32,000 nt of DNA from Candidatus Nitrospira inopinata (GCF_001458695.1 NZ_LN885086.1:960001-992000); one strand, 5' to 3'. Shown: positions 12,216-32,000, counted from the stretch's first letter. Notes: generated from the sequence alone by a model not told the origin. Numbers and translations: made by a program.

Positions 12216-12290
12216 CGAACATCTCATCGCGGGAACGATGATGGCGGCCCCTGGAACGATTGCCAAACGCCTCCGCTCGGGAGCGACCTG

Positions 12291-13694: not shown

Positions 13695-13833
13695 CCGCTT
13701 CTAATATCAACTTAATCGCCTTCTCATAGCCGGTTGTTACGCTCTCTCGCAAGTGGAAAGAGAGGCTGCGCGGCTCCCTGTCGAGTGCAAGCTCGCAACG
13801 CCGGCAGGCAACCAGTGATGGAAAGGAGGACCT

Positions 13834-15427: not shown

Positions 15428-16438
15428 CTAAGATGACCAGCCCACGTCGTGGAGCCGATACCGGCCGAGGCCGAAACTCGTGCCTTTGCCGGCGTGGGCG
15501 ACCTCGCCCAGACGAAGCAGCGGCAGAAACGGAGCCAGCGGTCCCTCGAAAACGACGGTGCCGGTCACGCCTCCCAATTCCATTTCCGTCCGTTGACGGG
15601 AAGAATACCGGGTCCAATCCGACCAGGTCAGCGACGAAGACACGGTCCGCACCTCCTGGGCCAGCGCAATCCAGTCACGGAAGGCGACGATCGAGGGATC
15701 GCCGCCGCAGTGGAAATACGAGAGATGCGCGAGGCGTCGTAGGAGCGATCGGATGAGCACGTGAAAATCCAGCCTGGCGGCGAGGTGCTCCCGGTACCGA
15801 ATGCGCAGAGGAGAGAGAATTTCGATTGCGACCCGTTGCGAGAGAGCCGGCTCACCGGCCTCCGGAGGAACGCGCGGCAGGATTCTTCGTTCGGTGAAGG
15901 CCTCGACGCCCCGCAACGTTCGCTCGTCGGCGCCATACACAGGGTGCCGATGACCGTCCAGCCGGCCATCCACCGTGACGAGCGACGCCGTCGTCCGCCG
16001 ACCTCCCAGACCGGCGCGTCCCATCCGTTCCAACGCAAAAATGAAGTGGGGAAGCCACGCTACCGTTCTCCCGAACAGGGTCAGCCCGAGTTCAACGGTC
16101 TGCCCGGCCCCGATGGTTCGCCCGCCCTCCGGCGGGATCAACACGAAGGGGTGAGGCGCCGCCGGATATTTGCGCATGATCTTCGCGTCCGCGGGAGGCG
16201 GCGTCTCAAACACCCACGGATACACGCACCGGTCGCGCAAGGCACAGGGGGGACAGTCGTGAGCGCGCGTGACACAGACCGCCTGCATCAACGCCCAGCC
16301 GAAGGAGCCGCGGAACAGGGACCCGGCATAGACAGGGAGCGCAAGCGGGCCGTCGAGTCGAAAGGTCGCGGTGAAACGGCCGAATGAAAGGGGCAAGCCC
16401 GTCGCATGACCGTGGTCACGGGGACAGGAATCGATCAC
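15428..16438 (-). CDS. cas6: CRISPR-associated endoribonuclease Cas6 (RAMP) with Cys-rich N-terminal segment (336 aa)
   Basis: The C-terminal glycine-rich loop 'GEVAHAGKGTSFGLGRYRL' is typical of Cas6. The N-terminal 'CVTRAHDCPPCALRDRCVYPWVFE' is a pattern I associate with the PF10040/DUF2276-type Cas6. Start set at GTG 16438, which overlaps the cas2 stop (GTGA). The annotated ORF start at 16597 would overlap cas2 by 160 nt with Arg-rich sequence. Confidence 0.72.
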   Translation of the reverse strand: MIDSCPRDHGHATGLPLSFGRFTATFRLDGPLALPVYAGSLFRGSFGWALMQAVCVTRAHDCPPCALRDRCVYPWVFETPPPADAKIMRKYPAAPHPFVLIPPEGGRTIGAGQTVELGLTLFGRTVAWLPHFIFALERMGRAGLGGRRTTASLVTVDGRLDGHRHPVYGADERTLRGVEAFTERRILPRVPPEAGEPALSQRVAIEILSPLRIRYREHLAARLDFHVLIRSLLRRLAHLSYFHCGGDPSIVAFRDWIALAQEVRTVSSSLTWSDWTRYSSRQRTEMELGGVTGTVVFEGPLAPFLPLLRLGEVAHAGKGTSFGLGRYRLHDVGWSS

Positions 16439-16713
16439 GGCAGCATCACCATGGCGCCGTCCGGCGTCCGGTCTCCTGATCCGAGCGAGGCGATGGGTTG
16501 ATCGGACGGCAGCGGGTAAATTCTGACGTCGTCGGCCTTGGCGTCGATCAGCTCCGCCAAGCGTTCGATCGCGTCCGCTCGTTCGGGCCAGGTCCATGAA
16601 CAGAGAAAGACGGAATACTGCATCGGCACGCCCACCCCCTTGAGGTAGCGATGCACGCGGGCCAAGCGACCCTCGTCGGCAATGTCATAGCAAACCAGGT
16701 AGCGCGTTTGCAT
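16435..16713 (-). CDS. cas2: CRISPR-associated endonuclease Cas2 (92 aa)
   Basis: ATG 16713 gives 'MQTRYLVCYDIADEGRLARVHRYLKGVGVPMQYSVFLC...DDVRIYPL', the classic Cas2 ferredoxin-fold pattern (YDI.D..RL.kv...L......Q.SVF.c). It starts 10 nt after the upstream stop. Confidence 0.87.
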   Translation of the reverse strand: MQTRYLVCYDIADEGRLARVHRYLKGVGVPMQYSVFLCSWTWPERADAIERLAELIDAKADDVRIYPLPSDQPIASLGSGDRTPDGAMVMLP

Positions 16714-16723: not shown

Positions 16724-17500
16724 TTATGGCTCCCGCAAGAGCTCCCCGTACTGATCAAGCAGCCGGCCGAGCAGGCGCACAAGACGGGATCGGTGCCGCT
16801 CGAAACTCTCGGCCACGTCGAGAGACAAGGCGGCGCCGGTTTGATCGGCAAGACGTCCCTGCTCCAGCCAAAGCCGGTCGGCATCCGCGCGGATCGCCAT
16901 CGCGCAATCCTTGACGAACCCCAACGACTCCCCGCGATGGATGACGCCGACGTGCGGGTCCCAGCCCGTTTCGGCGATCCGGTCCAGGATCAAGGTATCG
17001 ACGGCCGCGTGAAAGAGGCGACGTTGACGAAGAGCGGCGCCGCGTAGACGGCCGAGACGCTGGACCCATTGTTCATAATCCATGGTCCGCACGCCGTGTC
17101 GTCTCCAGCGAGCGGCAATCACGGCATCCAGGCCGGTCGCCAAGGCCAGCCGTCGCCCCCGTTCCCAGGCCCGTAACCAGCTTGAAACCCGTTCTTGCAC
17201 GGAGGGGTTCTCGATCATCCCGACCTGAAGCCCTCGGCGGGCAAAGAGGCCGGAAGCGCAACTCACGACCATCGCCATTGGTTGCCCGTTTCGACCGACC
17301 AGCGTGACCGGCACTCCCCGCTCGGCGAAGGCCGTCAGGCTCTCGGTGTCGAGCGCGACGTTCCCCGCAATGAGCACGCGCCGAATCAATCGCACCGGCA
17401 CTCGGCGACCGGCCGAGCCAGGCTGTTCGATCCAGAGTGACGGTCCGTCACGGCGGACGGACAGCCCGGGCCGTTCATTGAGAAAGAGAGTCCGATCCAT
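16724..17500 (-). CDS. Cas1-like paralogue, shortened and with eroded active site (258 aa)
   Basis: The N-terminus is collinear with the Cas1 beta-domain (MDRTLFLNERPGLSVRRDGPSLWIEQ...RVLIAGNVALDTESLTAFAERGVPVTLVGRNG). The C-half retains 'GWDPHVGVIHRGESLGFVKDCAMAIR', compared with canonical '[28 protein letters not shown]'. It lacks the '[14 protein letters not shown]' segment. It overlaps the cas1 stop by 26 nt. Confidence 0.65.
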   Translation of the reverse strand: MDRTLFLNERPGLSVRRDGPSLWIEQPGSAGRRVPVRLIRRVLIAGNVALDTESLTAFAERGVPVTLVGRNGQPMAMVVSCASGLFARRGLQVGMIENPSVQERVSSWLRAWERGRRLALATGLDAVIAARWRRHGVRTMDYEQWVQRLGRLRGAALRQRRLFHAAVDTLILDRIAETGWDPHVGVIHRGESLGFVKDCAMAIRADADRLWLEQGRLADQTGAALSLDVAESFERHRSRLVRLLGRLLDQYGELLREP

Positions 17501-18437
17501 CGTTCACCAACCGCCTGGCCAAGGCCTCGACCGTCTCCCGCAGGCGAGGTCGATGTTGCGCCATCCACTGGTCATAGGCCTGGTAGTAATGGCCGCGCGC
17601 CGCTTTCTTGAGCGAACAGCCGGGCCGGTCCTGATCCGAGGCGAAGTTTCGCGCTTCGAACTGTCGCTCGCGGAACAGCATCCAGACCCAGTGATCGATC
17701 ACCGGCCGAAAGGGCTCCAACAAGTCGCACGCGAGCGACTCGCGGCCATAGTCGATCTCGTGATAGAAGCCGATCAAGGGATCCAACCCGATCAGCTCGC
17801 ACTCGCGAACCCATTCCCAGTGGGCGAGGGTGTAGGTCAACGACAAGAGCGCATTGACCGGATCGCGAGGCGGCCGCCGTTCCCGCCCTCCGAACGCCAG
17901 GCTTGCGGGAAACAGGGACGGCAACGCGGCGAAGTATGCCGCCGCCGCACCCCCTTCCAATCCACGGAGCCGTTCCAGCGTCTCAGCGCCGGTGACTTTC
18001 GCCATGGTCTCCTTGATGACGGTGGCGGCGTGGAGCAACCCGGCCCGCCGGTCTGGTCGGACATCCGCCGTCTCCATGAGGAACGATGCCTGGCCGTCGA
18101 GCTTGGCTGTGATCCATTCCCTCGCCAGAGCCAGGGCCATCGGACTCCGATAGGCATCGTATTGAGCGACACGCAGCCGGGCATGATTATGCAGGCGACC
18201 GATCACGCGGCCGCGGAACGAGAGGCTGCGCCCTGACAAAAACAGCACGGAGATCCCTTGCTCCGCCAGACGGTGCAGCAGGGCCGTCTCGACCGTCTGC
18301 CGGCCGATCACCACGAGCCGGTCCACCGGCGCGAGCGGCACCATGCCGTCCCGTTCGCCGTTCACATAGACCGCCAAGGCTCCGCCGTCCAGCCGAAGTT
18401 CCGCGTCTGTTCTGTCCAGATAGACGGTGCCGCCCAT
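17475..18437 (-). CDS. cas1: CRISPR-associated integrase Cas1 (320 aa)
   Basis: All Cas1 hallmarks are present: '[13 protein letters not shown]' (Glu), '[22 protein letters not shown]', and '[32 protein letters not shown]' (His, Asp/Glu). Confidence 0.92.
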   Translation of the reverse strand: [320 protein letters not shown]

Positions 18438-18664: not shown

Positions 18665-18679
18665 TGGCACTTATATTGC
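18665..18679 (+). promoter_or_regulatory. candidate sigma54 (-24/-12) promoter
   Basis: In CTGGCACTTATATTGCC, TGGCAC (18665-18670) and TTGC (18676-18679) have the canonical spacing of the TGGCAC-N5-TTGC consensus. The site is about 158 nt upstream of the oxidase start codon. Confidence 0.45.
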
Positions 18680-18717
18680 CCCCAATCCTGCTCATTCTTG
18701 CTGCTTGTTGCCCATTG

Positions 18718-18746
18718 TTGACACAGGGGAAGCCTTTGCGTATAAG
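18718..18746 (+). promoter_or_regulatory. candidate sigma70 promoter
   Basis: TTGACA (18718-18723), a 17-nt spacer, then TATAAG (18741-18746). This is a perfect -35 and a 5/6 -10, about 90 nt upstream of ATG 18837. Confidence 0.5.
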
Positions 18747-18836
18747 CGCCAAGGATCTCAAAAGGAGCTCAAGAAAACTTCGTAGACGATGGCGGTCCGG
18801 GAACATTCGCAGACGAAAGTGAGAAAAGGAGAACAG

Positions 18837-21800
18837 ATGACGAGCAAGAGAGTGGGCGAGCAGTGTGGAGCACGATGGTGTTCAACCGTGCTCTCGATCA
18901 TGATGGTGAGTGCGGTGATCGTGGGTAGTAATATGGTCTGGGCGCAAACCGGGGCGGTCGGCGAGCAACGTGCCGTAACCGCGAAACCGGTCCAAACGCG
19001 GCAGCTTCCGGTGAAACCGCTCCCGCCCGGTCTTCCCGCTCAATCCTGTCCCGCCTCAGCGCTCAAGGCCGACGTGGTCGCCATCGACCATCCGATCGTG
19101 TTCAACCGGTTCGGCGCCCAAAACATCAATTGGATGATGTACGCCCTGCGTCACGACGTGATCGATCTCAAATCAGGCCGGCCGTTGGATGCGTCGTTGC
19201 TCAAGGAAGTGAGGAGCCGCTCGAAGAGCCGCCACATCGCCTTGCGGCCGGATTTGAGGCCCAGGCCGCTCGTGTTGCGCGTAGCGGCGGGAAACTATTT
19301 GGCCGTCACGGTTACCAACCTACTGGAGGTGGAATCAGGTTCACCGCCGGATTCTTCCATCGGAAACCCGTTTCATTCCGACGAGACCGACCTCCTTCCC
19401 GGGGTCGATCACCCGATGGAACAGGGCCGCCGCGATCCTCCCGGCACACCGGGTGAGCAACGGATCTTCCACATCGACGAACAGGTCGAAAGCCGCACGA
19501 TCGGTTTCCACGTGCAGGGATTAGAGCTGGTCAACTCTATCTCGGACGACAGTTCGTTCGTGGGGACCAATCCCAACAGCCTCCTCAAACCCGGTCAAAC
19601 CAGAACCTATTGTCTCTTTGCCGCTCGCGAGGGGACCTACGGGATCAGTAGTGACGGGGCCGTATTCGGAGGCGACGGCACGGCGGGCAACTCGGCGGTG
19701 GGGCTCTTCGGCGTCGTGGCGGTAGAACCGAAGAACGCGCGATTCTATCGATCGCAGGTCACCGAGGAAGAGCTTCGCTTGGCGACCAAGGGGACCACGG
19801 CTTTCGGCCAACCGATCATCAACTACGAGGCCCTCTATCCCAACGACTGTCCCGGCGGCATCTGGTGCCGCGAGGGCAAGGCGGGACTCCCGATCCTGAA
19901 CATGGTTCATCGTAGCCGTCTCGTCCACAGCGACATCAATGCGATCATCATGGGCCCCAAGCCGGATGGGAGCTTCCCTCCCTCCACCTATCCGCTTGAA
20001 GCGACCGGCAAACGCAACCCGACGTTGCCCAATCGGTTGGAGCCGTTCCGTGAATTTGTCTCGGTCTATCATGACGAGGCGGCGGCGACGCAAGCGTTCC
20101 CCTATTTCTTTGAACATCCGGAGTTGCACCACACCCTGCACGGGGTTCGTGACGCCTTCATGATCAACTATGGCTCCGGAGGGATCGGCGCGGAGATCAT
20201 CGCGAACCGACTCAAGGCCGGTCCTTCTCACGACTGTGTCGATTGCGCCTACGAAGAGTTTTTCTTATCGGCCTTCACGGTGGGCGATCCCGCCATGATC
20301 GTCGATAGGCCGGCCAACCTCTCGACCGGCCTCTGCCAGCCGGAATACCTCCAGCCTGAATTTGCGGCGGAGTATCAGAAGTTTTGCGTCCAGCACCCCC
20401 AAGATCGGGCGACCAAGGTGTACTACCCGCACGATCCCTCCAACGTGCATCACAGTTACATCGGCGACTTTCTCAAGTTCCGGAACGCCCACGTGGGTAA
20501 GGAGCAGCACATCTTCCATCTCCATAATCATCAATGGCTGTTCAATCCCAATGACGACAATTCCAACTATATCGACGCGCAGGCCATCGGACCGGGGTCT
20601 GGCTATACCTATGAAATCGCCTTCGGCGGGTCGGGCAATCGCAATCGGACGGTCGGCGACGCGATCTTCCACTGTCATTTCTATCCGCACTTCGCCCAGG
20701 GCATGTGGGCGATGTGGCGCGTTCATGACGTCTTCGAAGCCGGCACCAAGCTCAAAGTCAGTGAGACGAGGACGGGTTTCCATGATCAGCCGTTCGGCCT
20801 GATGGATGGCACGCCGGGCAGGGGCGCTCGAGCTCTGCCCGATGGGGAAATCGTGGCCGGTGCGCCGATTCCCGCCGTCGTGCCGCTCCCTGGTAAAGCG
20901 CTTGCGCCCATGCCGGGAAAGGTGATCGTCCAGCCTCGCATCGGGCTTGACAGCCAAGTGCATGGCTCGGTGGCGAAGGTGATCGATCGCGAGCGCAACC
21001 CCGGCTTTCCCTTCTGGGTGGCGGGAATCGAAACGACCGTGGGCTCCCGTCCCACGACCCCACCTTTGGATATGTCGGAAATTCCCGGTGTGGTGAAGGG
21101 CCATGACGGAGGACTCCCGCGCCATGCCTTGCACGGCTATTCGGCCGATGCCCATTCGGAAGACTTCCTCTCCCGGCACACCGCCAAAAAAGAAATCAAG
21201 AGGGCCAAGCCGGAGTTTTTCCCGGAACAGGGCACGGATCTCGAACAACTCGCCATGAAGTATCACGCCACGCACCACCCGACGGTGAGGCTCACGGCCG
21301 CCGGCACGGTGGCAGGTCCGGCCCTGTTTCGGACGAACGGGGCTCCGCCGGTCCCCGGCGCGCCGTTTAACGAGCCCTGCATCGATGATCGAGGCAAGGT
21401 ATTAGCGACCGGTCAGGACGCCCGCTTCTTCGGCGGCGCTCCAGGCACCTGGCTCAAGGTGAGTGAGGTGCTGCCGGGCGGGATCGAATTCGGCGCCGAC
21501 AAGCCGCGCGTCTATAAGGGTGCCAATATCCAGCTCGACGTCGTGTTCAACAAACTGGGGTACCACTATCCTCAGCAGCGGATCTTGGCCCTATGGGAGG
21601 ACGTCCCGCCGCTTCTGCGCAAGGCTCTGGCGCCGGAGCCGCTCGTGATCCGCATGAACACGTTCGACTGCGCCATGTACGCGCACACGAACCTGGTGCC
21701 GCTCAAATTCTACGAGGACGACTATCAAATCGAGACGCCGACGGATGTCATCGGCCAACATATCCATCTCCCCAAGTGGGATTTGACCTCGGCGGACGGA

Positions 21801-24800
21801 GGCGCCAACGGCTGGAACTACGAGGACGGCACCTTCTCGCCCGGTACCGTGCGAGAGCGCATTCACGCGATCAACGAGTGGAATGCCAACCACCCCGCTC
21901 AGGCCGTGCCCCATCCGGTGACCGGGGTCACGACCTTGGTGCCGGCGGTCCATCCCTTCTTCAACGGAGACAATCCGCTCATCGCGGGCCCGATCCCGTT
22001 GCAAAAGCCTGGTGAAGCCTGTCTGAAAGCCTGGGAAGAAGTCGGAGGCAACGTCCACAAGTTTGAATTGACCTTCGGTATGCCGGGCGTCTGCGATTGG
22101 CTGGGAGCCAGGACCACGTTGCAACGGTGGTTCTCCGATCCGGTTGTGAACACCGGCCATGTCCATCGGGGGCTCGGCACGACCTTCACCCATGACCATC
22201 TTGGGCCCTCCACCCATCAGCAGGTGGGCCTCTACGCCACCATGTTGAGCGAGCCGCCCGGTTCGGAATGGCGACACAACGAGACAGGGCAGAAACTCTA
22301 CGATCCGGCCATCCGTCAGGACGGAGGTCCCACCTCGTGGCAGGCGGTGATTGCCGGGAAAAAGGGGACCGGTCTGGACATTGATAAGGACAAGCAGGAC
22401 GACGCCCACCGGGAGTTCTTCATCCAGTTCGGCGACTTTCAACATGCCTATGAGAAGGGCGTGTACGTCGGCGTCAACGAGAAGGGCTGGTCCTACGAGG
22501 TCGATACGAACGTCAAACCGACGCCTGACACCTATCGGTTTGCCATCCATCCGTCACATCGGAAGCCGACGAATCCGGTCTTTCCAGACATCGTGGCCTA
22601 TGAGCCGACTTGCCCTGGCGGAAAAGATGAACACCGGCTCCCGGGTGCCGTGTATCACGCCGTGACGCCGCCGCTCAGGCCCTGTCCTGAGGCGATCTCA
22701 GCCGATGATATCGGCATGATGGTCGTGAACTATCGCAACGAACCGGTTGCCGCCCGCGTGTACGATCCCAAGAAGGTCGGGCCTGATGGAAAACTGGGGG
22801 CGCAAACCAATGGCCCGGCGGGCGATCTCGCCTTGGCCCTTCAGACCAGGACGGATCGCGCAATTTCCGAACTCAACACCCAGCTTGGCGCGACACCCTA
22901 TCCGGCCTTGACCAACGGGGTGTTGGCCGGTGATCCCTTCACGCCGATCCTGCGAGCCCATGCGGGGGACCTGATCCGTGTCAAGGTCCAGGCCGGCTCG
23001 CACGAACACGAACACAACGGCGCGATCAACGGGCTTCTGTGGCTCCAAGGGGGCTCCGGCTATGGGCAGGCTCCCCATTCTGGCTGGCGCAATTCACAGA
23101 ATACGGGGCTGTCGGAACAGTTCGCGTTCACCGCGAGACTCAAGGACCATCGGTTCGCGATCAATGATCGGCTTTACGTGATCGATGCAAGCCAAGATGG
23201 GATTTGGAATGGCGCCTGGGGAGTGGTGCGGAGCTACGACCAGAAACAGGCCGATCTCGTGCCACTGCCGAACCATCCTCAGCCGTCTCATTTACCGGCC
23301 GGTTCCGCCTGTCCCGCCTCCGCGCCGGTGCGGTCGTACCATGTCGCGGCGGTGTTGGCGAACCAGGTGCTCGATCCGGTGCCGGGCATCTCGATTCCTC
23401 CGGCGGCCCCTGGCAGCACCCTTGATCCGAAGGGTGGCACGCTCGTCTATAATCCCCGGCAGACGCAGTTGACGCTGCTCATCGATGGGAAGCCCACCTC
23501 CTTTGGCGCCGGGCCCTTGCACGATCCGACGGCGATCCTGTTCGTGCGGCTTTCCGATCTCGACCCGGCCACCGGCAAGCTTAAACCCGGCGCACCGTTG
23601 GAGCCGGTCGTCATCCGAGCCGCGGCGGGCGACTGTGTGCAGGTCGCCTTGTACAACAGGCTGCCGGTCAAGCAGAGCCAAATGCCGGACCTGGATGGCT
23701 ACACGGCCCTCTCCGGAACCGTCATCCGCGACCATGGGACCGGGGCATCGAGTATGACCACGTTCAATAACAATCTCATCAGGCCGTCGAACGTGATCGG
23801 TCTCCATCCCCAGATGGTGCACTATGACATCCAGGCATCGGACGGTGACACAGTCGGCGTCAACCTGGTTGGCGGAGTGGCGCCTGGCGGTGTCAAACTC
23901 TACCAATGGTACGCGGGCGTGCTGGATACGGAAACAGCAGGACCGCTGTGTCCTGATTATGCCGGGAACGACCTCGCGCGACAGTTCGACCGGCTGAGTC
24001 TCTTCACCCGTGAGCCCCGCTTGCGGCCGTTGAACGAGTTCATGACGCAGGAACTCTTTGCCAACGTTGCCACGGCCATCTTGGAACGGGCGCTGCGGCA
24101 AGATCTGAGGATCACCCAGCATCACCTGACAACAGGCGGTGTGCAAATCCACCGGACGAGCGAGCCAACCGGCGGTCCTGCAAAGGTATCACCTTCCATT
24201 GAGAGCATGCCGGCCTCACCGCCGGTGGTCGCGCAAACCCAGGAGCCTCAGCAAATCATCCCCTCGCTGGTGAGACAGTTGACGGCTGCCGTTCAGAACG
24301 CCCAATGTTTCGAAGAACCGCCGACAGGTGGGATTCAGGGACTCGCTCAAGGGCTCACGGTCGTGAGGCCCGGGAACGACGGAACGTTCCTGGCGGACGA
24401 CGGAAAGCAACCGCGCGTCCAACATGACGGCGCTCCCCTGCTCTCGCCCAAGAGCCAGTTCGATCCGCTGGCGCTCATGCCGCAGCGGCAACGGTGCCGA
24501 GAGCAGTTGCACGGTGAGTTCGTCCGGACTCTCAGCCGGGTGCTCACAGGCAATACTCTTGAAGTGGTGGCCCTCCGGTTGGCGGAGAGTTTTAAGTACG
24601 AAGTGGTGGGTGTGGCACCCGGTTCCGACGGCCGAGCCGAGTACGGTTGGCGGCTCGATCGGTATCCCGATTACACGCCGAACACGACCCGCCTTGTCAT
24701 GCCCGGGACGAAACAATGTCGCTTCGTCCCGGTCGAGTTCGGCGCGAGCAACCTCACGCCGCCGGACCGGATCAAACAAGGACAAAAGGCCGCCGTGGGG

Positions 24801-25703
24801 GCCATGGTGATCGAACCGGAAAAGTCGATCTGGCTTGAAACGTTCGACGATTGGGCCATGGATCGGCAAGATCCCACTCAGAAGCGCCGAAGCCGGGCCA
24901 CGGCGACGGTCACCTATCCGACAATCGAAGGAGAGGCGCCAAAACATCGAGCCTTCCGCGAGATCGCGCTGGTCCATCAAAAGGGATTGAACCTACGAAA
25001 TGCGAAGGGCGATGCCCTGGCCAATTTGGCGGCGGAGAAGGCGGAGGCCGAAGAGCCGAGCGACCGGACCGTGCCGGAAGACGCGCATGACGCGGGGCAC
25101 ATGGCGATCAACTACGGCACGGAGCCGATGTGGTTCCGGTTCGGCCTGCCGCCCGATGCCCCCTTTGGGCGCGAGGGTTTTGCCGGCGCCGTCCATGCTT
25201 GGCAGGCCTTCTCCAACTCCTGTTGCTCGACCGGCGGCAGTGTCACGACCACGTCGCAACCGGTGGGTGATCCGGCCGTGCCGATCCTGCGAGTCAGGCC
25301 CGGCGGTGAATTGCGACTCCGTACCGTCATGCCGACCGGCGTGGGGCGAGGAACGGTCATGGACCTACATGGCCACCACTGGGCGAGGGATCCCTACTTG
25401 GCCGAACGGCTGGGACCGGGTGGCCTCCCCAACGGCTCTCGTCCCGCCGACTGGGGGGTGGGATCTCAATGTCTCGGGCGCAACCCGCTCAATTTTGCCC
25501 GTGGTGGGCAAGAGAGCATGACGCCGATGGCGCACTTTGACCTCGTCATGCCAAGGGCCGGCGGCAGACATCTGGTCAAAGGCGACTATCTGTACCGCGA
25601 CCATGCCGGCTTCGGCATCACGAACGGCCTCTGGGCTCTCGTGCGTGTCGAGGGGCTCCCTCTGTTCTCCTCCGGCTTGCGATCGTCCTGTCGAGTGCCA
25701 TGA
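18837..25703 (+). CDS. giant secreted multicopper-oxidase-like protein, MnxG-like (2288 aa)
   Basis: ORF 18789-25703. I prefer ATG 18837 because SD AAGGAG (18826-18831) sits 5 nt upstream and a signal peptide follows (MTSKRVGEQCGARWCSTVLSIMMVSAVIVGSNMVWA/QT). Cu-ligand signatures: HIFHLHNH (20508-20531), HCHFYPHFAQGM (20670-20705), HIH (21759-21767), THDH (22191-22199), HEHEHNG (23001-23015), LHGHHW (25365-25382). Confidence 0.78.
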   Translation: MTSKRVGEQCGARWCSTVLSIMMVSAVIVGSNMVWAQTGAVGEQRAVTAKPVQTRQLPVKPLPPGLPAQSCPASALKADVVAIDHPIVFNRFGAQNINWMMYALRHDVIDLKSGRPLDASLLKEVRSRSKSRHIALRPDLRPRPLVLRVAAGNYLAVTVTNLLEVESGSPPDSSIGNPFHSDETDLLPGVDHPMEQGRRDPPGTPGEQRIFHIDEQVESRTIGFHVQGLELVNSISDDSSFVGTNPNSLLKPGQTRTYCLFAAREGTYGISSDGAVFGGDGTAGNSAVGLFGVVAVEPKNARFYRSQVTEEELRLATKGTTAFGQPIINYEALYPNDCPGGIWCREGKAGLPILNMVHRSRLVHSDINAIIMGPKPDGSFPPSTYPLEATGKRNPTLPNRLEPFREFVSVYHDEAAATQAFPYFFEHPELHHTLHGVRDAFMINYGSGGIGAEIIANRLKAGPSHDCVDCAYEEFFLSAFTVGDPAMIVDRPANLSTGLCQPEYLQPEFAAEYQKFCVQHPQDRATKVYYPHDPSNVHHSYIGDFLKFRNAHVGKEQHIFHLHNHQWLFNPNDDNSNYIDAQAIGPGSGYTYEIAFGGSGNRNRTVGDAIFHCHFYPHFAQGMWAMWRVHDVFEAGTKLKVSETRTGFHDQPFGLMDGTPGRGARALPDGEIVAGAPIPAVVPLPGKALAPMPGKVIVQPRIGLDSQVHGSVAKVIDRERNPGFPFWVAGIETTVGSRPTTPPLDMSEIPGVVKGHDGGLPRHALHGYSADAHSEDFLSRHTAKKEIKRAKPEFFPEQGTDLEQLAMKYHATHHPTVRLTAAGTVAGPALFRTNGAPPVPGAPFNEPCIDDRGKVLATGQDARFFGGAPGTWLKVSEVLPGGIEFGADKPRVYKGANIQLDVVFNKLGYHYPQQRILALWEDVPPLLRKALAPEPLVIRMNTFDCAMYAHTNLVPLKFYEDDYQIETPTDVIGQHIHLPKWDLTSADGGANGWNYEDGTFSPGTVRERIHAINEWNANHPAQAVPHPVTGVTTLVPAVHPFFNGDNPLIAGPIPLQKPGEACLKAWEEVGGNVHKFELTFGMPGVCDWLGARTTLQRWFSDPVVNTGHVHRGLGTTFTHDHLGPSTHQQVGLYATMLSEPPGSEWRHNETGQKLYDPAIRQDGGPTSWQAVIAGKKGTGLDIDKDKQDDAHREFFIQFGDFQHAYEKGVYVGVNEKGWSYEVDTNVKPTPDTYRFAIHPSHRKPTNPVFPDIVAYEPTCPGGKDEHRLPGAVYHAVTPPLRPCPEAISADDIGMMVVNYRNEPVAARVYDPKKVGPDGKLGAQTNGPAGDLALALQTRTDRAISELNTQLGATPYPALTNGVLAGDPFTPILRAHAGDLIRVKVQAGSHEHEHNGAINGLLWLQGGSGYGQAPHSGWRNSQNTGLSEQFAFTARLKDHRFAINDRLYVIDASQDGIWNGAWGVVRSYDQKQADLVPLPNHPQPSHLPAGSACPASAPVRSYHVAAVLANQVLDPVPGISIPPAAPGSTLDPKGGTLVYNPRQTQLTLLIDGKPTSFGAGPLHDPTAILFVRLSDLDPATGKLKPGAPLEPVVIRAAAGDCVQVALYNRLPVKQSQMPDLDGYTALSGTVIRDHGTGASSMTTFNNNLIRPSNVIGLHPQMVHYDIQASDGDTVGVNLVGGVAPGGVKLYQWYAGVLDTETAGPLCPDYAGNDLARQFDRLSLFTREPRLRPLNEFMTQELFANVATAILERALRQDLRITQHHLTTGGVQIHRTSEPTGGPAKVSPSIESMPASPPVVAQTQEPQQIIPSLVRQLTAAVQNAQCFEEPPTGGIQGLAQGLTVVRPGNDGTFLADDGKQPRVQHDGAPLLSPKSQFDPLALMPQRQRCREQLHGEFVRTLSRVLTGNTLEVVALRLAESFKYEVVGVAPGSDGRAEYGWRLDRYPDYTPNTTRLVMPGTKQCRFVPVEFGASNLTPPDRIKQGQKAAVGAMVIEPEKSIWLETFDDWAMDRQDPTQKRRSRATATVTYPTIEGEAPKHRAFREIALVHQKGLNLRNAKGDALANLAAEKAEAEEPSDRTVPEDAHDAGHMAINYGTEPMWFRFGLPPDAPFGREGFAGAVHAWQAFSNSCCSTGGSVTTTSQPVGDPAVPILRVRPGGELRLRTVMPTGVGRGTVMDLHGHHWARDPYLAERLGPGGLPNGSRPADWGVGSQCLGRNPLNFARGGQESMTPMAHFDLVMPRAGGRHLVKGDYLYRDHAGFGITNGLWALVRVEGLPLFSSGLRSSCRVP

Positions 25704-27676
25704 GGGAGCGCGTCGCTCGGTGGGTGGTCGGCGTGATGATGTTGGGCTGGCTCGGCGCGCCGGCGCCGAGCGTCCGGGATACAGCCTTCGCCTTGGTCCT
25801 CATGGACCAGACGATCGAGACAGAAGGTGTCACGCTGCGCGTCCAACTGGAGCGGGATGACGATCGGGATGGCAATGGATCAGCCCCCGTTTCCCGAGCG
25901 GATCGTCCTGTCCGACTGACCATCGAAGCGAAGCGAGCGCCGGACGGGACGCCGCTCACCCAATGGTGGCCCGGCGCCTGGATCGATTGGCAGATCGATC
26001 CCCTCTCCGGTTCCGTGCCCACCTGCTCGCAGCGGATCGGCCGGTACCTTGGTGGCTCACTCCTGGCTCGTCCCCTTGTTGATCTGACTGGCTCCTACGT
26101 CGTGACCATGGACCAGGAGCCAAGTCTCTCGGTCCTCGACCCTTCCGTCAATTTCGCTGGCCGCAGCAGCCTCTATCGATCCGTTTCTCTACCCGCTCCC
26201 GCCGCAGACTGGGCCTCGACCCCGGATGATCGATGGCTGGCGGCGGCGGTGCCGGACGCGAAGGCGGTGGTTGTGGTCGGGACCGGCGACTTTACAATCG
26301 CCCATCGGATCGACCGGCCTCGCCGCCCCCGTCAGGTCTTGATGCAACCACAGAGCCGGCTCGTATGGATCAGCGAGCTTGAAGATCAAGCAGGTGGAAA
26401 GGGCCAAGGGTGGCTCACTGCCATCGATACGGCCGCCTGGTCGATCGTGGAGTCGTTTCCTGTAGGGGAGGGGCTCCCCCTCGTGACGTTCGCAGTCGAT
26501 GGCCCGTGGGTCTACGCCGCAAGCCGTTCGGCTCGCCAACTGACCATCATCGACTCGCAGCGCATGGTGGTCCAGCGGGCGGTGCCGTTGGACTTTGCTC
26601 CAACCGGCCTGGCCGCTACTCTCTCTCAGCCCGCTCAGCCCGCCCCGTCTGCTCAACCAACTCAGCCTGCCCAGCCAGCCGAGCCCATGCTCTGGGTGGT
26701 GGATGGCAAAAGGGGCCGATTCGTTCGGTTCGATGTCGAAGGGCGTGAGAGGGATCGCATCGCTGTGGCCCAGACCTTGGAGTGGGCCTCGCTGAGCCCT
26801 GATGGCCGCTGGGTCGTGGTGGCCACCCCGCCGACCGGCCTGACGGCGATTGCCACGACCTCTCCCCATCGAATGGTTTCGATTCCGTTATCAGGCAAAC
26901 CGAGCCATCTTCTCTGGTCGGACCAATTCGCCTATGTGCTCGTGCCGGAACAGGGGACGCTTAGCCTCTTCACTTGGCCGTCGCTCGGCGAGGGAGCACT
27001 GCCGATCAAATCGATCGCGATTGGAGCCAGTGCCTTGTCAGTCAAAGCGGGAGGGCCTGTGGCCTCCGCCATGGCACTGATGGCGGACGGCAAAGGCACG
27101 TTCATCGCCCACCCGACGGAGCGGATGATTTATACCTACATGGAAGGCATGAACGCCCCGAGCCAGGGAGTGCGAGCCTATGGCCACACCCCATTGGCCG
27201 TGAAGACGGTTCGCCGCACGTTTCACGAAATCGAACCGGGCATCTATCGCCAATGGGCCAGGCTCCCTGCATCCAGCGGACGGCTCATGCTGGCGATTGC
27301 GGGAGAGTCGCCATCGGTGCGAACTTGTCTCGGCTTGCCTCCGCTCGGTCAGGAGGCGCCTCGGCAGACTAAAGGGGGCTGGCAGTGGGCGGCGCTAAAC
27401 AAACTTACGGCTCGTGTCGCCGAACACGTTACAATCCGCCTGACCAGGGAGTCGGTTGGCGAGGAGCGAGAGGACGGATCGCCGGCACATGTGACGCTCC
27501 GCCTCATGCGGGCGCGAGGCGGGCTCTACGACGAATGGCCGCTCCGTCGGCTTCCGGACAGTCCAAACGCCTACGAGGCCACGGGGACGGTGCGAGAAGC
27601 CGGTACCTATTTTCTCTATCCTACCGTCAACGGCCGACCCTCGTCTGTCCCAGGCACGTTGATCGTCGAGGAATGA
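25700..27676 (+). CDS. periplasmic beta-propeller-like (YVTN/NHL-type repeats) protein with C-terminal Ig-like domain (658 aa)
   Basis: The start ATG overlaps the oxidase stop (ATGA at 25700-25703), and the N-terminus is hydrophobic. Propeller-like strands include 'LTIIDSQRMVVQRAVPLDFAPTGLAA' and 'LSPDGRWVVVATPPTG'. There is an internal QPAQPAPSAQPTQPAQPAEP linker. The domain call is by eye. Confidence 0.55.
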   Translation: MRERVARWVVGVMMLGWLGAPAPSVRDTAFALVLMDQTIETEGVTLRVQLERDDDRDGNGSAPVSRADRPVRLTIEAKRAPDGTPLTQWWPGAWIDWQIDPLSGSVPTCSQRIGRYLGGSLLARPLVDLTGSYVVTMDQEPSLSVLDPSVNFAGRSSLYRSVSLPAPAADWASTPDDRWLAAAVPDAKAVVVVGTGDFTIAHRIDRPRRPRQVLMQPQSRLVWISELEDQAGGKGQGWLTAIDTAAWSIVESFPVGEGLPLVTFAVDGPWVYAASRSARQLTIIDSQRMVVQRAVPLDFAPTGLAATLSQPAQPAPSAQPTQPAQPAEPMLWVVDGKRGRFVRFDVEGRERDRIAVAQTLEWASLSPDGRWVVVATPPTGLTAIATTSPHRMVSIPLSGKPSHLLWSDQFAYVLVPEQGTLSLFTWPSLGEGALPIKSIAIGASALSVKAGGPVASAMALMADGKGTFIAHPTERMIYTYMEGMNAPSQGVRAYGHTPLAVKTVRRTFHEIEPGIYRQWARLPASSGRLMLAIAGESPSVRTCLGLPPLGQEAPRQTKGGWQWAALNKLTARVAEHVTIRLTRESVGEEREDGSPAHVTLRLMRARGGLYDEWPLRRLPDSPNAYEATGTVREAGTYFLYPTVNGRPSSVPGTLIVEE

Positions 27677-27683
27677 TCGAGGA

Positions 27684-28292
27684 ATGATGAGGCCCGGAAC
27701 AGACAACCTACCGGTCAGGACGTTGCCGCTCTTCGTTCTTCTGGGGTGGCTCGTCGGAGGCCTGATGGTGGAGCCGGTCATGGCTGAGGAGGTCCCGAAC
27801 ACCATGGTGGCGATCGACTGCCCGGATGTCCCGGTGCAGGATCAGCAAGGCCATGCCGGTTCATTTCACGAGGTGACGGGCGACCGTTTGGTGATCCTGA
27901 CCTTCACCTATGGCACCTGTCGGACCGCCTGTCCGATCGTCAACGGGCTCCTGGCTTCGGTCTATCATCACCTGGGCCCGCGAGTCGGTCGAGACGTGGT
28001 GGTGGTCTCGGTCTCGGTTGACCCCGAACATGACCGGCCCGAGCAGTTGGCGGAGCACCATCGGACATTCGGAGATCTGCCGCACTGGTATCGTCTGACA
28101 GGAGATCGAACGGACCTGGCAAGACTCTGGCGGGCGTTCGGCATCCGAGTGAGCCAAGACCCAGGCACCCATGCGAGCGACATCTTCATCGGCAGTCCGG
28201 TACGAGGAACCTGGCGACGGGTCTCAGGTCTCCTCTCGCCTCAATCCATCGTTCAGGCACTCGATGATACTCACCAGATCATGGTTCAGTGA
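27684..28292 (+). CDS. SCO1/SenC-family thioredoxin-fold copper chaperone (202 aa)
   Basis: Signal peptide present. 'VILTFTYGTCRTACPIV' supplies the CxxxC(P) motif. Also 'VVVSVSVDPEHDRPEQLAEH', 'YRLTGD', and the downstream conserved His 'GTHASDIFI'. Confidence 0.8.
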   Translation: MMRPGTDNLPVRTLPLFVLLGWLVGGLMVEPVMAEEVPNTMVAIDCPDVPVQDQQGHAGSFHEVTGDRLVILTFTYGTCRTACPIVNGLLASVYHHLGPRVGRDVVVVSVSVDPEHDRPEQLAEHHRTFGDLPHWYRLTGDRTDLARLWRAFGIRVSQDPGTHASDIFIGSPVRGTWRRVSGLLSPQSIVQALDDTHQIMVQ

Positions 28293-28884
28293 CCATCGTT
28301 CGCAACTCCGCCACGGTCTCATCATGGCGGCAGTGGCCGGATGGTTGATCGGGCCGGCCGTTGATGCCCCTCAGGCTGCCGAGCCGATCCCATCGGATGA
28401 ACGGGCGCGACAGTATTTTACCGATGAACCAGTGGTCGATCAGGATGGGCGCTCCCACCGGTTCTATAGTGACCTGCTCGCGGGCCACACGGTGTTGATC
28501 CATGCCTTTTACGCCCAGTGCCGCGAAGCCTGTCCGCTCCAAGTGGATCGGTTGCGCCTGGTGCGGACACGACTGGGCTCGGTCTTCGGATCGACGGTGC
28601 GGTTTCTCTCCTTGAGCGTCGATGTGGCGCACGATCAACCGGAACAGCTTAAGACCTTCGCGCATCGCCACGGGGCAGACGAACCGGGCTGGTACTTTCT
28701 CTCCGGCCATCCCGTGCGATTCTCGCTTGTCCTCAAGCGGCTTGGGCTCTGGACCGACGACCCGTCGGATCATCAGACCCTGTTCATCGTCGGCAGGCCC
28801 GCCACCAAACATTGGAAAAAACTCCGTCCCGATGCCTCGCCCGAGGAGGTGGCACGGGCGCTTATCCAATTGGCCGATGAATGA
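28264..28884 (+). CDS. second SCO1/SenC-family copper chaperone paralogue (206 aa)
   Basis: 'VLIHAFYAQCREACPLQ' supplies the CxxxCP motif. Also 'RFLSLSVDVAHDQPEQLKTFAH', 'YFLSGH', 'PSDHQTLFIV'. Start set at ATG 28264, which gives a signal-peptide-like N-terminus and overlaps the upstream gene by 29 nt. ATG 28324 is the alternative. Confidence 0.75.
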   Translation: MILTRSWFSDHRSQLRHGLIMAAVAGWLIGPAVDAPQAAEPIPSDERARQYFTDEPVVDQDGRSHRFYSDLLAGHTVLIHAFYAQCREACPLQVDRLRLVRTRLGSVFGSTVRFLSLSVDVAHDQPEQLKTFAHRHGADEPGWYFLSGHPVRFSLVLKRLGLWTDDPSDHQTLFIVGRPATKHWKKLRPDASPEEVARALIQLADE

Positions 28885-30295
28885 GAGGACGGGCAGTTCG
28901 CGGCCAGGCCTGCTTTGCATTCTGAGTCTGGTGTTGGGGCTCGCGAGTTCGTTCGTCGCCGGAGGTCTGGCTTCGCCGAGGGCTGGCGAGACGGCTCTCA
29001 TCCTAGGCCGAGCCCTGTATGAGCAGGGACGGGGCGTCGGCGATCGTGAGATCCAGGGGAAACTGGGCAATGGAGTCGAACTCACCGGCTCGGCGGCTGC
29101 GTGCGCCAACTGCCATGGTCGCGATGGGCGTGGATTGAACGAAGGGGGACTCCGCGCGCCGGATATCCGCTGGAGCACCTTGACCGATCGATTTGCTCCA
29201 GTTCGGCAAGGTCCTGCTGCTGTGTCCTATGATCAATCCAGCCTGGCGCAAACCCTGACGACTGGCCAAAGACCCGACGGATCGATGCTCGGTCCCGCCA
29301 TGCCGCGATTCGATCTGAGAGAAGCGGAAGTCTCCGCCCTGGTCGAGCAGTTGATCGCCCTGTCGGCCACGGCCTCCTTCACGACTCTTCCACGACCGAT
29401 CATTCTAGGCCTGGTTCCCCAGGCTGGACGGGATCGCATGGCCGATCAGTTGGTTCGACGTATCGACCAGTGTCCGGAAACGATGCAGCCCCAACCGACC
29501 TCGTCGATCCGTTGGGTTCGCTATCAAGACCCAGACGACGCCCTTCGGCAACTGGAGGAGATCCGGTCCCGAGAGGCTGATCTGATCCTCGTTACGCCTT
29601 ACCTGGTCGGCTGGGAAGACCGTTTTGCCGAATGGACCGCGTCACGGCCCGTCACGGTTGTGCTACCCGTTGCCTTCAGGAGTCCGGAAGAATCAGAACC
29701 GTGGCTCTATCGCTTGCCTGGCCTCGAACGGCAAGTGGAACGGCTGATTGAGGAGGCAGCCGAGCACAGCCCCGGCGGTGTCACGGTCGCGATCGATCCC
29801 CGTGATCCTCTGAGCCAGCACCTGGGCGCCGTGGCAGGGCGGATGGCCAAGACGTTGGACCTTCCTCTCGAACGGTGGCTGGCTCACGAGCGGACGCAGC
29901 GGCTTCGTCCTGGACGGCCACTCCTGTGGCTCCGTCCGATGAAGGAGATGGAACGGTTCGTGGGGTCTTCAATCCCCCGCACGATCTTGATCCCCAGCCT
30001 GTTCTATCAGCAATCGAGAGTGCCGAAAACCGGCCGGTGGGTAAAGACCGACTGGGTCGTGGCCTATCCGTACTCACCACGGGACTCTTCAACCGGTCGC
30101 TGGCTTGCGCCGGCGATGGTCTGGGGCCGAGCCGCCTGCAGGATTCTGGCTTCGCTGGCCGGCGACCCAAGCGGCGAGTTCGCCCGCCCGCTGAATCTCG
30201 CTCCGCTGCCGCTCGTCATCCTTCCTCGTCCGACGGATGTCGAGGCTCGCGCGATGGTGGGGATGCTCAGGAATCCTTCGACGGATTCCCAGTGA
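28877..30295 (+). CDS. periplasmic mono-haem cytochrome c fused to a ~330-aa C-terminal domain (possibly periplasmic-binding-protein-like) (472 aa)
   Basis: ATG 28877 overlaps the upstream stop by 8 nt, and a signal peptide is present (LLCILSLVLGLASSFVAGGLA). The haem c site is CANCH (29102-29116) with a plausible distal Met in 'GPAMPRFDL'. The C-terminal domain is not recognisable by eye. Confidence 0.68.
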   Translation: MNERTGSSRPGLLCILSLVLGLASSFVAGGLASPRAGETALILGRALYEQGRGVGDREIQGKLGNGVELTGSAAACANCHGRDGRGLNEGGLRAPDIRWSTLTDRFAPVRQGPAAVSYDQSSLAQTLTTGQRPDGSMLGPAMPRFDLREAEVSALVEQLIALSATASFTTLPRPIILGLVPQAGRDRMADQLVRRIDQCPETMQPQPTSSIRWVRYQDPDDALRQLEEIRSREADLILVTPYLVGWEDRFAEWTASRPVTVVLPVAFRSPEESEPWLYRLPGLERQVERLIEEAAEHSPGGVTVAIDPRDPLSQHLGAVAGRMAKTLDLPLERWLAHERTQRLRPGRPLLWLRPMKEMERFVGSSIPRTILIPSLFYQQSRVPKTGRWVKTDWVVAYPYSPRDSSTGRWLAPAMVWGRAACRILASLAGDPSGEFARPLNLAPLPLVILPRPTDVEARAMVGMLRNPSTDSQ

Positions 30296-30613: not shown

Positions 30614-31882
30614 TTATGTCTCGTCCAACGTTGCGAAGGCGATGGCCGGCTGCTCTCCGAGGATCGCGAGCACGACCTCGCGCAAATCCTGATAGCCGGC
30701 TTCGGTGCCCGAGGTCGTTCCATGCGCCAGCCACGACATGTTCCGAGCGGACTGGACTTGCTTAAACCGGTTCTGCTGTTGCTCGAACTGTTGGCCTTCC
30801 GGTTCGCCGAGGGCGGCCAAGAGGCGGTAACTGGCTTCGAGTGGCAGTTTGAGCGTGCCCCCGTCCTCCGGGCGATAGCGGGCCAGGAACTCGGCTCGCA
30901 CCGTTTCCGGAATCGCCTCCACCGGCACTCGATCGGTTCCGCAGCCGAGCCGTCGCTCGATCGCAATCTGGGCTCCCAGCTCAAGTGCGCGATAAAGCCG
31001 GACGATCGCATCGTCGTAGCTGCCTTCCGTGGCCCGACGATCGGCATTGGCCAGCAGGTCGGCGATGAACAGCCGGTGGTAGCGGCGGAACCCACCGGTG
31101 TGTTTGGCGAGTTGTTCCAGCCAGGCGACATTGGCTTCCAGCATGGGAAGCACGGCGGCGTACCGAATGGCGGGATTGGCCTGTACCGCGATCGTCCAGC
31201 GGCTGCGGCAGCGCCCCAACACTTCCAAGGCACGTTGATATTCAAACCGCTCCCAGAGCAGATACCCTTTCGCCACTTCTCCGATCAGCTCGAAGGCCAA
31301 ACGATCCGGCTCCGTGAGGGGTCTTGAAAGGACCGACCGAATGAGCGCCTGGGCTGCCGTGAACTGAAACGTGCGGAAGAAGAGCGCCAACCGTCTCCGC
31401 TCTTCGACAGCGAAGACTGCAAAGGGATCATCTCGCCTGATGATCGCCTCGCTGCCGGTGATGACCACCCCTCGCCCTTCCTTGGATCGTTCGCGCCCAC
31501 CCACATAGACGAACGAAAACCCCTTGCCCACCGTGGCCAGGGCCAGCGCCGCGCTCATCACCTTGGTGCCGCCCGTGAAATCCACGGCCACGCGCTCGGG
31601 TGGAATGTGCAGGTCGGCGAGATGCTCGGCGCATCGAATCGCCTCGGCGTAACAGGTCACGAGATCCTGCGGGTCGCGCGTGATGACCTTGCGATCCCTC
31701 GTGGGAATACCCAGGTCTCGCACCTGATCCTTGATCGCGCCGATCTGTTCGACCGTCTGTTCCGATGCGAAGAAGATGACAACCGTCGGGCTATGTGCCC
31801 GAAGCGTCGTCACAATCGGCTCGATGGAGCCGCCTACCGAGACAATCATGGCGTGAACAGACGAGGTCCTCGTATCGGACAT
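30614..31882 (-). CDS. CRISPR-associated CARF-HEPN protein (Csx1/Csm6-like, Cas02710/TIGR02710-like) (422 aa)
   Basis: SD AAGGAG lies 7 nt upstream of ATG 31882. The Rossmann-like CARF N-domain has 'AMIVSVGGSIEPIV' and 'VAVDFTGGTKVMSAALA'. The C-terminal HEPN R-x6-H motif is 'ARNMSWLAHG' (30722-30745). Confidence 0.75.
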   Translation of the reverse strand: MSDTRTSSVHAMIVSVGGSIEPIVTTLRAHSPTVVIFFASEQTVEQIGAIKDQVRDLGIPTRDRKVITRDPQDLVTCYAEAIRCAEHLADLHIPPERVAVDFTGGTKVMSAALALATVGKGFSFVYVGGRERSKEGRGVVITGSEAIIRRDDPFAVFAVEERRRLALFFRTFQFTAAQALIRSVLSRPLTEPDRLAFELIGEVAKGYLLWERFEYQRALEVLGRCRSRWTIAVQANPAIRYAAVLPMLEANVAWLEQLAKHTGGFRRYHRLFIADLLANADRRATEGSYDDAIVRLYRALELGAQIAIERRLGCGTDRVPVEAIPETVRAEFLARYRPEDGGTLKLPLEASYRLLAALGEPEGQQFEQQQNRFKQVQSARNMSWLAHGTTSGTEAGYQDLREVVLAILGEQPAIAFATLDET

Positions 31883-32000
31883 GCCGAACTCCTTCTTTGC
31901 ACCTCTCTTACTCTCTTGGAGAGCCAGGGGCAAGCACGGAAACGTTGCCCTCGGGCTGGAGGACCACGGTGATTTGGTCCATCTGTCCGTCAACCATAAG

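Follow-up and report, generated by a model that had tools for sequence, protein, structure and literature searches.

A Pseudomonas-type mnxG operon with a long-form, predicted six-domain multicopper oxidase in Candidatus Nitrospira inopinata: a candidate manganese oxidation system

Introduction

Does a nitrifier carry the genes of a complete manganese-oxidizing system, or merely a stray multicopper oxidase (MCO)? Few organisms are as abundant as Nitrospira in the sand filters used for drinking water, and manganese removal in these filters is biological, with the responsible organisms uncertain. The question is raised by a 32,000-nucleotide (nt) stretch of the Candidatus Nitrospira inopinata genome (NZ_LN885086.1:960001–992000; hereafter the window), in which a first-pass annotation, made from the sequence alone, had marked a translationally coupled operon of five genes around a giant MnxG-like MCO. 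It had proposed a metal-oxidation system for Mn(II), Fe(II) or Cu(I) with its own copper-loading machinery. Following up this annotation computationally, we arrive at the reading, to which we give a probability of about 60%, that the locus is the Nitrospira version of the Pseudomonas-type mnxG operon and that Mn(II) oxidation is its most likely function. Published reports have already described mnxG in sand-filter metagenome-assembled genomes (MAGs) of Nitrospira and Nitrosomonas and suggested that Nitrospira may oxidize Mn (10.1101/2024.12.25.630300; PMC12070406). Our additions are modest: the full accessory operon, the invariance of the copper ligands, a long-form clade with a helical insert, the loss of a SurA gene, and promoter elements.

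Results

Identity of the large protein

The large protein was matched colinearly by the NCBIfam model NF041487 (‘manganese-oxidizing multicopper oxidase MnxG’, Pseudomonas-type, 1894 positions) with a score of 2133.4 bits. The match falls into three stretches, the best of which pairs amino acids (aa) 75–1043 with profile positions 4–972. Among proteins of solved structure, Bacillus MnxG (PDB 9bxa_A) was matched by sequence at E=8e-67, with all six Bacillus domains matched in order, and two-domain laccases matched the domain-2 segment at ~1e-6. Consistent with this, AlphaFold2 (AF2) models of aa 61–1250 (predicted template modelling score (pTM) 0.82) and aa 1160–2288 (pTM 0.83), used as two halves, both returned 9bxa_A as the top Foldseek match (E=6e-15 and 3.5e-25, respectively), followed by copper nitrite reductases, two-domain MCOs, ceruloplasmin and factors V/VIII. 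Further evidence on the domain count came from internal profile matches between domains 1 and 5 (E=4e-8/6e-10) and domains 3 and 5 (3e-4), with weaker ones of domain 6 to domains 2 and 4 (~4e-3), a pattern that fits alternating odd and even cupredoxin domains.

A tblastn comparison with Pseudomonas putida PSE7 (locus L064) showed 50% identity over aa 76–1699 and 40% over aa 1966–2271, the gap between the two being a clade-specific insert. The closest relatives are Nitrospira MAG proteins with 87–97% identity over the matched segments; the best full-length database match, at 94%, lies on the Nitrospira MAG contig JANDJI010000003. Several long-form homologues carry the JGI annotation ‘manganese oxidase’. 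The first-pass annotation had put the protein at roughly twice the size of Bacillus MnxG, and it is indeed 1.86 times the 1227-aa Bacillus chain. Neither this size nor the accessory genes are unusual, because the proper comparator is P. putida MnxG with its published six-gene operon (PMC11409713); a 2013 listing already contained proteobacterial relatives of 1.5–2.7 kaa (thousand aa) (PMC3600357).

Copper sites

All the motifs quoted in the first-pass annotation are present where it had placed them: HIFHLHNH at aa 558, HCHFYPHFAQGM at aa 612, HIH at aa 975 and T-HDH at aa 1118–1121, with HEHEHNG at aa 1389, LHGHHW at aa 2177 and YRDHAGFG at aa 2253 further downstream. Each residue of the domain 2 motifs has its counterpart in Bacillus MnxG and in HTFHMHGH...HCHVQSHSDMGM from two-domain laccases, and H618 aligns with H340 of the deposited 9bxa ‘Mnx H340A’ structure. 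Alignment to solved laccases and Bacillus MnxG gives a single predicted type 1 copper (T1) site in domain 2, comprising H558, C613, H618 and M623, and a predicted eight-histidine trinuclear centre at domains 2 and 3, comprising H561, H563, H612, H614, H975, H977, H1119 and H1121. All twelve canonical copper ligands are invariant in 44 aligned homologues.

The motifs of MnxG run in the order HxxHxH, HCH, HxH, HxH, unlike the order HxH, HxH, HxxHxH, HCH of three-domain laccases and CueO. This permuted order had been given in the first-pass annotation as a MnxG feature, in agreement with the published survey of bacterial six-domain MCOs: in all those analysed, including PputGB1_2447, domain 2 alone carries T1, and the trinuclear centre lies between domains 2 and 3 (PMC3600357). 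Residual motifs occur at the remaining domain interfaces of these enzymes (PMC3600357), and by its sequence the Cys-less domain 6 pair qualifies as a putative residual site of this kind: H2180, W2182, H2233 and D2255 show no variation, conservation of H2178 is 90% or higher, and Bacillus MnxG has an equivalent Cys-less pair in domain 6 (HTFHLHGHYW...GDYLYRSGN). In the domain 4 cluster, E1390 is invariant and E1392 and H1393 are at least 90% conserved.

Operon structure and synteny

The mnxG reading frame extends at most over 18789..25703 (+), ~6.9 kb. With this length and more than 1300 homologues in the database, the open reading frame (ORF) cannot have arisen by chance. An AAGGAG ribosome-binding site stands before the ATG at 18837, and this start is kept in four related Nitrospira contigs, giving 2288 aa. 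An in-frame ATG at 18789 was rejected as the start; it has no ribosome-binding site and is not conserved in the Nitrospira contigs L001 or L003.

Downstream, profile and structure-database matches together with motifs recovered the beta-propeller-like protein, two SCO1/SenC proteins and cytochrome c fusion that the first-pass annotation had named (Table 1). The ORF, the gene set and the gene order of the proposed five-gene operon all stood, and so did the overlapping stops and starts, except at one junction. The mnxG and propeller genes overlap by ATGA, the two SCO1/SenC genes by ~29 nt, contingent on the start picked for the second, and the second SCO1/SenC gene and the cytochrome fusion by ATGAATGA; the propeller gene and the first SCO1/SenC gene are instead separated by a 7-nt gap. 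We place the start of the second SCO1/SenC gene at 28264, where a positively charged n-region followed by a hydrophobic stretch suggests it.

The order mnxG, propeller, SCO1, SCO1, cytochrome c fusion is the same in 12 loci from seven lineages (Nitrospira, Nitrosomonas, Lysobacter, a betaproteobacterium, Archangium, Zoogloeaceae and Pseudomonas, including P. putida). The mnxG operon of P. putida GB-1 encodes MnxG, a YVTN propeller, two SCO1/SenC proteins, an ‘ABC substrate-binding protein with cytochrome c domain’ and SurA (PMC11409713, Table 4), and the gene order here equals its genes 1–5. The SurA-like sixth gene is present in the Pseudomonas loci; neither this locus nor any other long-form one has it, the gene that follows being on the opposite strand.

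Table 1 Features of the mnxG operon and its upstream region (positions counted from the first nucleotide of the window)
Feature	Position	Strand	Description
Sigma-54-type −24/−12 element TGGCAC-N5-TTGC	18665..18679	+	158 nt upstream of mnxG ATG; consensus match
Sigma-70-like promoter TTGACA-17 nt-TATAAG	18718..18746	+	read from sequence; consensus match
mnxG	18837..25703	+	2288-aa predicted six-domain MCO, Pseudomonas MnxG type, long form
Sec-type signal peptide	18837..18944	+	aa 1–36, hydrophobic core aa 15–29, no twin arginine
Domain 2 copper motifs	20508..20705	+	HxxHxH: H558, H561, H563; HCHx3Hx4M: H612, C613, H614, H618, M623
Domain 3 HIH	21759..21767	+	H975, H977; predicted trinuclear-centre ligands; matches HIH of Bacillus MnxG
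Domain 3 HDH	22191..22199	+	H1119, H1121; predicted trinuclear-centre ligands; matches FHDH of Bacillus MnxG
Domain 4 HEHEHNG cluster	23001..23021	+	not a canonical Cu motif; matches HEESHSF of Bacillus MnxG domain 4
Clade-specific domain 5–6 insert	23928..24671	+	aa 1698–1945
Domain 6 vestigial Cys-less pair LHGHHW ... YRDHAGFG	25365..25616	+	
Propeller gene	25700..27676	+	658-aa exported YVTN-type beta-propeller protein; gene 2 of P. putida operon (PMC11409713, Table 4)
SCO1/SenC putative copper chaperone 1	27684..28292	+	202 aa; C79xxxC83, H163; PF02630 60.1 bits
SCO1/SenC putative copper chaperone 2	28264..28884	+	206 aa from ATG 28264; C86xxxC90, H170; PF02630 39.5 bits
Cytochrome c fusion	~28877..30295	+	472 aa, exported, mono-haem C76ANCH and diverged type-I periplasmic binding-protein domain

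The operon sits among CRISPR-associated genes: cas6/cas1 and csm6 flank it, and an IS200-like transposase lies nearby in a relative. These neighbours, together with the silence of Pfam on Cu-oxidase domains, could be taken to mean that MnxG is a degenerate, non-catalytic relic such as a structural surface protein, in an operon that is horizontally acquired cargo between cas genes and has no oxidase function. Against this, each copper ligand is intact and invariant, the frames are intact with 87–97% identity across several Nitrospira MAGs, the operon has the same GC content (guanine plus cytosine; ~0.60–0.67) as its flanks, and both Sco chaperones retain CxxxC and His. We regard such a relic as extremely improbable.

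Export and accessory proteins

A hydrophobic export or anchor segment is found in the sequence at the N-terminus of all five operon products. Cleavage of MnxG is likely between VWA and Q, as judged by eye. The statement in the first-pass annotation that the signal peptide lacks a twin-arginine motif is borne out by the MnxG N-terminus, which has no RR in aa 1–75. For the whole family, lacking the Tat (twin-arginine translocation) motif, which in Tat-exported CueO-like MCOs reads S/T-R-R-x-F-L-K, is the norm and Sec export is usual, because no S/T-RR-x-F occurs in any of 24 family N-termini.

The propeller protein matched a YVTN surface-layer protein best (1l0q, E=3e-7), with weak matches to YNCE/PQQ-propeller models. 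Both SCO1/SenC proteins lie above the PF02630 gathering threshold of 22.8 bits, and both combine CxxxC and a distal His with an N-terminal hydrophobic segment. The cytochrome c fusion gave weak Pfam cytochrome c matches. By BLASTP it matched its Pseudomonas homologue at E=3e-23 over aa 16–307, extending into the Peripla_BP_6 domain of that homologue. This domain is clear in the Pseudomonas and Zoogloeaceae fusions, and goes unrecognised by Pfam in those of the long-form clade.

Insertions and the long-form clade

A neighbour-joining tree divides the family into two clades, a long form of 2180–2480 aa found in two Nitrospira lineages, Nitrosomonas, Lysobacter, Caldimonas and Pseudorhodoferax, and a short form of 1880–2020 aa found in Pseudomonas, Myxococcota, Geobacteraceae and Zoogloeaceae. 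The large insert that the first-pass annotation had placed at about nt 23,900–24,800 lies close to its extent in the alignment with Pseudomonas MnxG (Table 1). This ~250-aa segment is absent from the Pseudomonas and Archangium forms, the other differences being several small indels. Its position is occupied, with gaps and without a single invariant column, in Nitrosomonas, Lysobacter and a betaproteobacterial MAG. In the AF2 model the insert forms five helices, whose predicted local distance difference test (pLDDT) values reach 97, and a pair of loops that stay below 50 and are described as disordered; it has no Pfam match.

Two further segments are extra relative to Bacillus MnxG and occur in the Pseudomonas form as well: a confidently folded, beta-rich module between domains 2 and 3 (aa ~640–895, 20760–21500), and a confidently folded helical insertion inside domain 3 between HIH and HDH (aa ~1000–1090, 21800–22100). 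The HIH–HDH spacing is 144 aa here compared with ~46 aa in Bacillus MnxG.

Promoter region

Two candidate promoter elements precede mnxG (Table 1). The sigma-54-type element is the only exact match to TGGCAC-N5-TTGC in the window, where 0.08 are expected. Almost every Pseudomonas locus has such an element a short distance upstream of mnxG, in agreement with the reported dependence of Mn oxidation in P. putida GB-1 on rpoN and the sigma-54 activator MnxR (PMC11409713). Among the Nitrospira relatives it is exact in L002 and L006, degenerate in L003 and absent from L001. The sigma-70-like promoter TTGACA-17-TATAAG is invariant in all five aligned Nitrospira upstream regions; an automated promoter scan passed over TATAAG, as it requires T at position 6 of the −10 element.

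Direct repeats CATTCTTGCTG and CATTGTTGACA, ~21 nt apart, were found by eye at 18690–18723 (+), overlapping the −35 of the sigma-70-like promoter, and are conserved among the Nitrospira upstream regions. They could form a candidate site for an OmpR-family (CopR-like) regulator. A CopR/CusR/CzcR-type response regulator (TIGR01387, 257 bits) is encoded 5 kb upstream of mnxG, followed by a HAMP-HisKA kinase and an HtrA/DegP protease (11538–15354, +); the sensor kinase adjoins cas6 also in L001 and L003. This pair could be a metal-responsive regulator of the mnxG operon.

Genomic neighbourhood

The CRISPR-associated genes upstream of the operon, on the minus strand, are cas6 (15428–16597), a short cas1-like ORF (16724–17500) and a full cas1 (17475–18437). 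Downstream lies a CARF/HEPN Csm6-family gene (30614–31993, −; TIGR02710, 239 bits). The same cas-flanked arrangement is found in the Nitrospira contigs L001, L003 and L008, with the IS200-like transposase past csm6 in L003. No CRISPR array was found in the window. Either the operon splits a cas locus, or the cas genes may be scattered remnants.

Elsewhere in the window, a 750-aa ORF (5304–7556, +) carries ~14 tandem 150-nt (50-aa) repeats with the peptide ...GLPLISYYD.TNGDLKVAHC...; with weak DUF1936/DUF7947 Pfam matches and no NCBIfam match, it probably encodes a repeat or beta-propeller-like protein. A tRNA gene (4890–4973, +; 52 bits) is the sole Rfam match. The remaining genes noted are those for the 961-aa glycine dehydrogenase GcvP (7610–10495, −) and for a 567-aa ORF with a C-terminal ThyX-like domain (99–1802, +).

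Discussion

Weighing the evidence

Homology, invariant ligands and synteny agree on the MnxG-like MCO that the first-pass annotation had read from the sequence. What of the metal-oxidation system with its own copper-loading machinery? Its MnxG-type oxidase operon stands on these same three lines of evidence. Its substrate we infer to be Mn(II), because of P. putida genetics and Bacillus biochemistry (PMC11409713; 10.1101/2022.11.10.515945). In P. putida GB-1, the Mn oxidases are encoded by mnxG and mcoA, and rpoN and cytochrome c maturation genes are required (PMC11409713); for Bacillus MnxG the evidence for Mn is biochemical (10.1101/2022.11.10.515945).

Several results weigh against this reading. 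The NF041487 score of 2133 bits is below the equivalog cutoff of 3100 bits, which makes the protein a homologue within the family without certifying it as an equivalog. Pfam detected no cupredoxin domain (PF07732, PF00394, PF07731) in the full-length protein at E<=0.01, and nothing significant in eight fragments at E<=5, where the top match was PF07732 (Cu-oxidase_3) with 12.3 bits and E=0.18. The cupredoxin profile scan suggested by the first-pass annotation thus gave no significant match; we judge this a failure of sensitivity and not a refutation of the MCO, because NCBIfam, the PDB sequence search and the fold search all give one. The segments bearing the copper ligands have pLDDT below 50 in the AF2 model, so that the assignment of the T1 site and trinuclear centre is made at the level of sequence. 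Neither L001 nor the long-form loci of proteobacteria have the sigma-54 element. The long-form clade is sister to the genetically characterised Pseudomonas enzymes, and we know of no demonstration of Mn oxidation for any of its members or for any Nitrospira. Finally, one preprint states outright that the function of these MCOs is poorly predicted by homology (10.1101/2024.12.25.630300).

The lowest AF2 confidence falls exactly at aa 555–624, 967–997 and 1119–1132, and the adjoining cupredoxin cores exceed 85. The low values at the ligand segments probably stem from a shallow, near-invariant alignment and the absence of metals.

Could the architecture be truly that of the P. putida MnxG family and the enzyme be, in its physiological role, a ferroxidase acting on Fe(II), a cuprous oxidase acting on Cu(I) in copper tolerance, or an oxidase of some intermediate, organic or from the nitrogen cycle, that matters to nitrifiers? 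The separation of the long-form clade from the genetically tested Pseudomonas clade, the score under the equivalog cutoff and the published warning that MCO homology does not predict substrate (10.1101/2024.12.25.630300) all lean this way, as do the enrichment of the long form in the nitrifiers Nitrospira and Nitrosomonas, the CopR/CusR-type regulator and sensor kinase 5 kb upstream, and the ferroxidases among the structural relatives, of which ceruloplasmin and Fox1 are examples. The only functional data in the family nevertheless point to Mn, through P. putida genetics (PMC11409713) and the more distant Bacillus biochemistry (10.1101/2022.11.10.515945). Moreover, the entire accessory gene set apart from the SurA-like gene is shared with Mn-oxidising pseudomonads, and mnxG-bearing Nitrospira are reported from Mn-removing sand filters (PMC12070406). 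We consider a substrate other than Mn(II) possible, and on this evidence somewhat unlikely.

Proposed mechanism

For the Mn(II)-oxidizing MnxG operon that we favour, the following scheme can be proposed. MnxG would be exported via Sec. The T1 copper in domain 2 would be wired through H612-C613-H614 to a trinuclear cluster at the domain 2/3 interface; single electrons would be taken from the metal substrate at T1, and O2 would be reduced to water at the trinuclear centre. As in Bacillus and P. putida GB-1, Mn(II) would be converted in steps, giving Mn(III/IV) oxide. Both SCO1/SenC proteins, whether anchored in the membrane or periplasmic, would probably hand Cu(I) to the apo-enzyme, and the propeller and the fusion of cytochrome c with a binding protein would be conserved partners, perhaps for assembly, localisation, or electron or ligand relay. 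Transcription would probably start from the conserved sigma-70-like promoter and perhaps also from the sigma-54 element.

The cytochrome raises the further possibility that Mn(II) oxidation conserves energy, with electrons passing via the operon cytochrome c into the respiratory chain and Nitrospira growing lithotrophically on Mn. A c-type cytochrome is a conserved operon member, Mn oxidation in Pseudomonas requires cytochrome c maturation genes (PMC11409713), and Nitrospira are over-represented relative to ammonia oxidisers in Mn-removing filters (PMC12070406; 10.1101/2024.12.25.630300). However, the full, invariant trinuclear O2-reducing centre means that electrons can pass directly to O2 without any energy being conserved, heterotrophs that do not grow on Mn (Pseudomonas, Lysobacter) carry this operon too, and an interaction between the cytochrome and MnxG is without support. 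Lithotrophic growth on Mn therefore appears very unlikely to us.

Implications

Returning to the operon as a Mn(II) oxidase system, the Nitrospira gene is not a stray MCO match: it belongs to a ligand-intact copy, complete but for the SurA-like gene, of the accessory-gene set of Mn-oxidising pseudomonads. The published hypothesis of Mn oxidation by nitrifiers thereby becomes concrete and can be tested with five defined genes. In addition, a long-form clade is defined (Nitrospira, Nitrosomonas, Lysobacter, Burkholderiales), which current curated models do not certify as MnxG. A broader proposal, which we put forward tentatively and with more doubt than confidence, is that the long-form MnxG operon is a functional Mn(II) oxidase system in canonical or comammox Nitrospira and in Nitrosomonas, with the insert and the cytochrome c as adaptations of the enzyme to this way of life. 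If it were true, nitrifiers would themselves be a direct cause of manganese removal, and of the formation of Mn oxides, in groundwater filters and sediments; in its boldest form, the insert and the cytochrome c would pass some electrons to the respiratory chain.

Comparison with known systems

The mnxG operon of P. putida GB-1 (PputGB1_2447 and the next five genes) resembles the locus most closely in what it encodes: the proteins are colinear with ~50% identity over ~1,950 residues, and the two systems share the copper-ligand set and order, Sec-type export, the first five genes and the upstream sigma-54 −24/−12 element. They differ in that MnxG here has the ~250-aa insert between domains 5 and 6 and smaller indels (2288 aa versus ~1950 aa), the SurA-like sixth gene has no counterpart, the next gene being csm6 on the other strand, and divergence has put the binding-protein part of the cytochrome fusion out of reach of Pfam. 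The hosts differ as well, a heterotroph there and a nitrite-oxidising or comammox genus here.

MnxG of Bacillus sp. PL-12 (PDB 9bxa), the best PDB match by both sequence and fold, shares the predicted six-domain layout, the T1 site in domain 2 and the trinuclear centre at domains 2 and 3 (placed by sequence in the Nitrospira protein), the Cys-less domain 6 pair and the domain 4 His/Glu cluster. The similarity is, however, local only, and the protein here owes its greater length to insertions, some inside domains and some between them; Bacillus and P. putida MnxG themselves share 25% identity (10.1101/2022.11.10.515945). The operon here has a propeller, Sco proteins and a cytochrome c fusion instead of small mnxE/mnxF-like genes of the Bacillus Mnx complex. 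The neighbours of mnxG are cas1 upstream and the propeller gene downstream, and from the promoter region to mnxG there is no small ORF on the plus strand, a statement about gene content made without a homology search for MnxE/MnxF.

Ceruloplasmin, hephaestin, algal Fox1 and factors V/VIII, which gave significant Foldseek matches behind MnxG, likewise repeat the cupredoxin fold with alternating odd and even domains, and the trinuclear centre of Fox1 also lies between domains 2 and 3 (PMC3600357). In ceruloplasmin, by contrast, there are three T1 sites and the trinuclear centre is found between domains 1 and 6, and the eukaryotic six-domain multicopper proteins show ~10% identity and no operon context.

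The mnxG of sand-filter Nitrospira MAGs is a gene of the same kind in the same genus (10.1101/2024.12.25.630300; PMC12070406). What these reports describe, in their accessible text, is gene presence, to which the present analysis adds operon structure, ligand conservation, the insert and the promoter elements.

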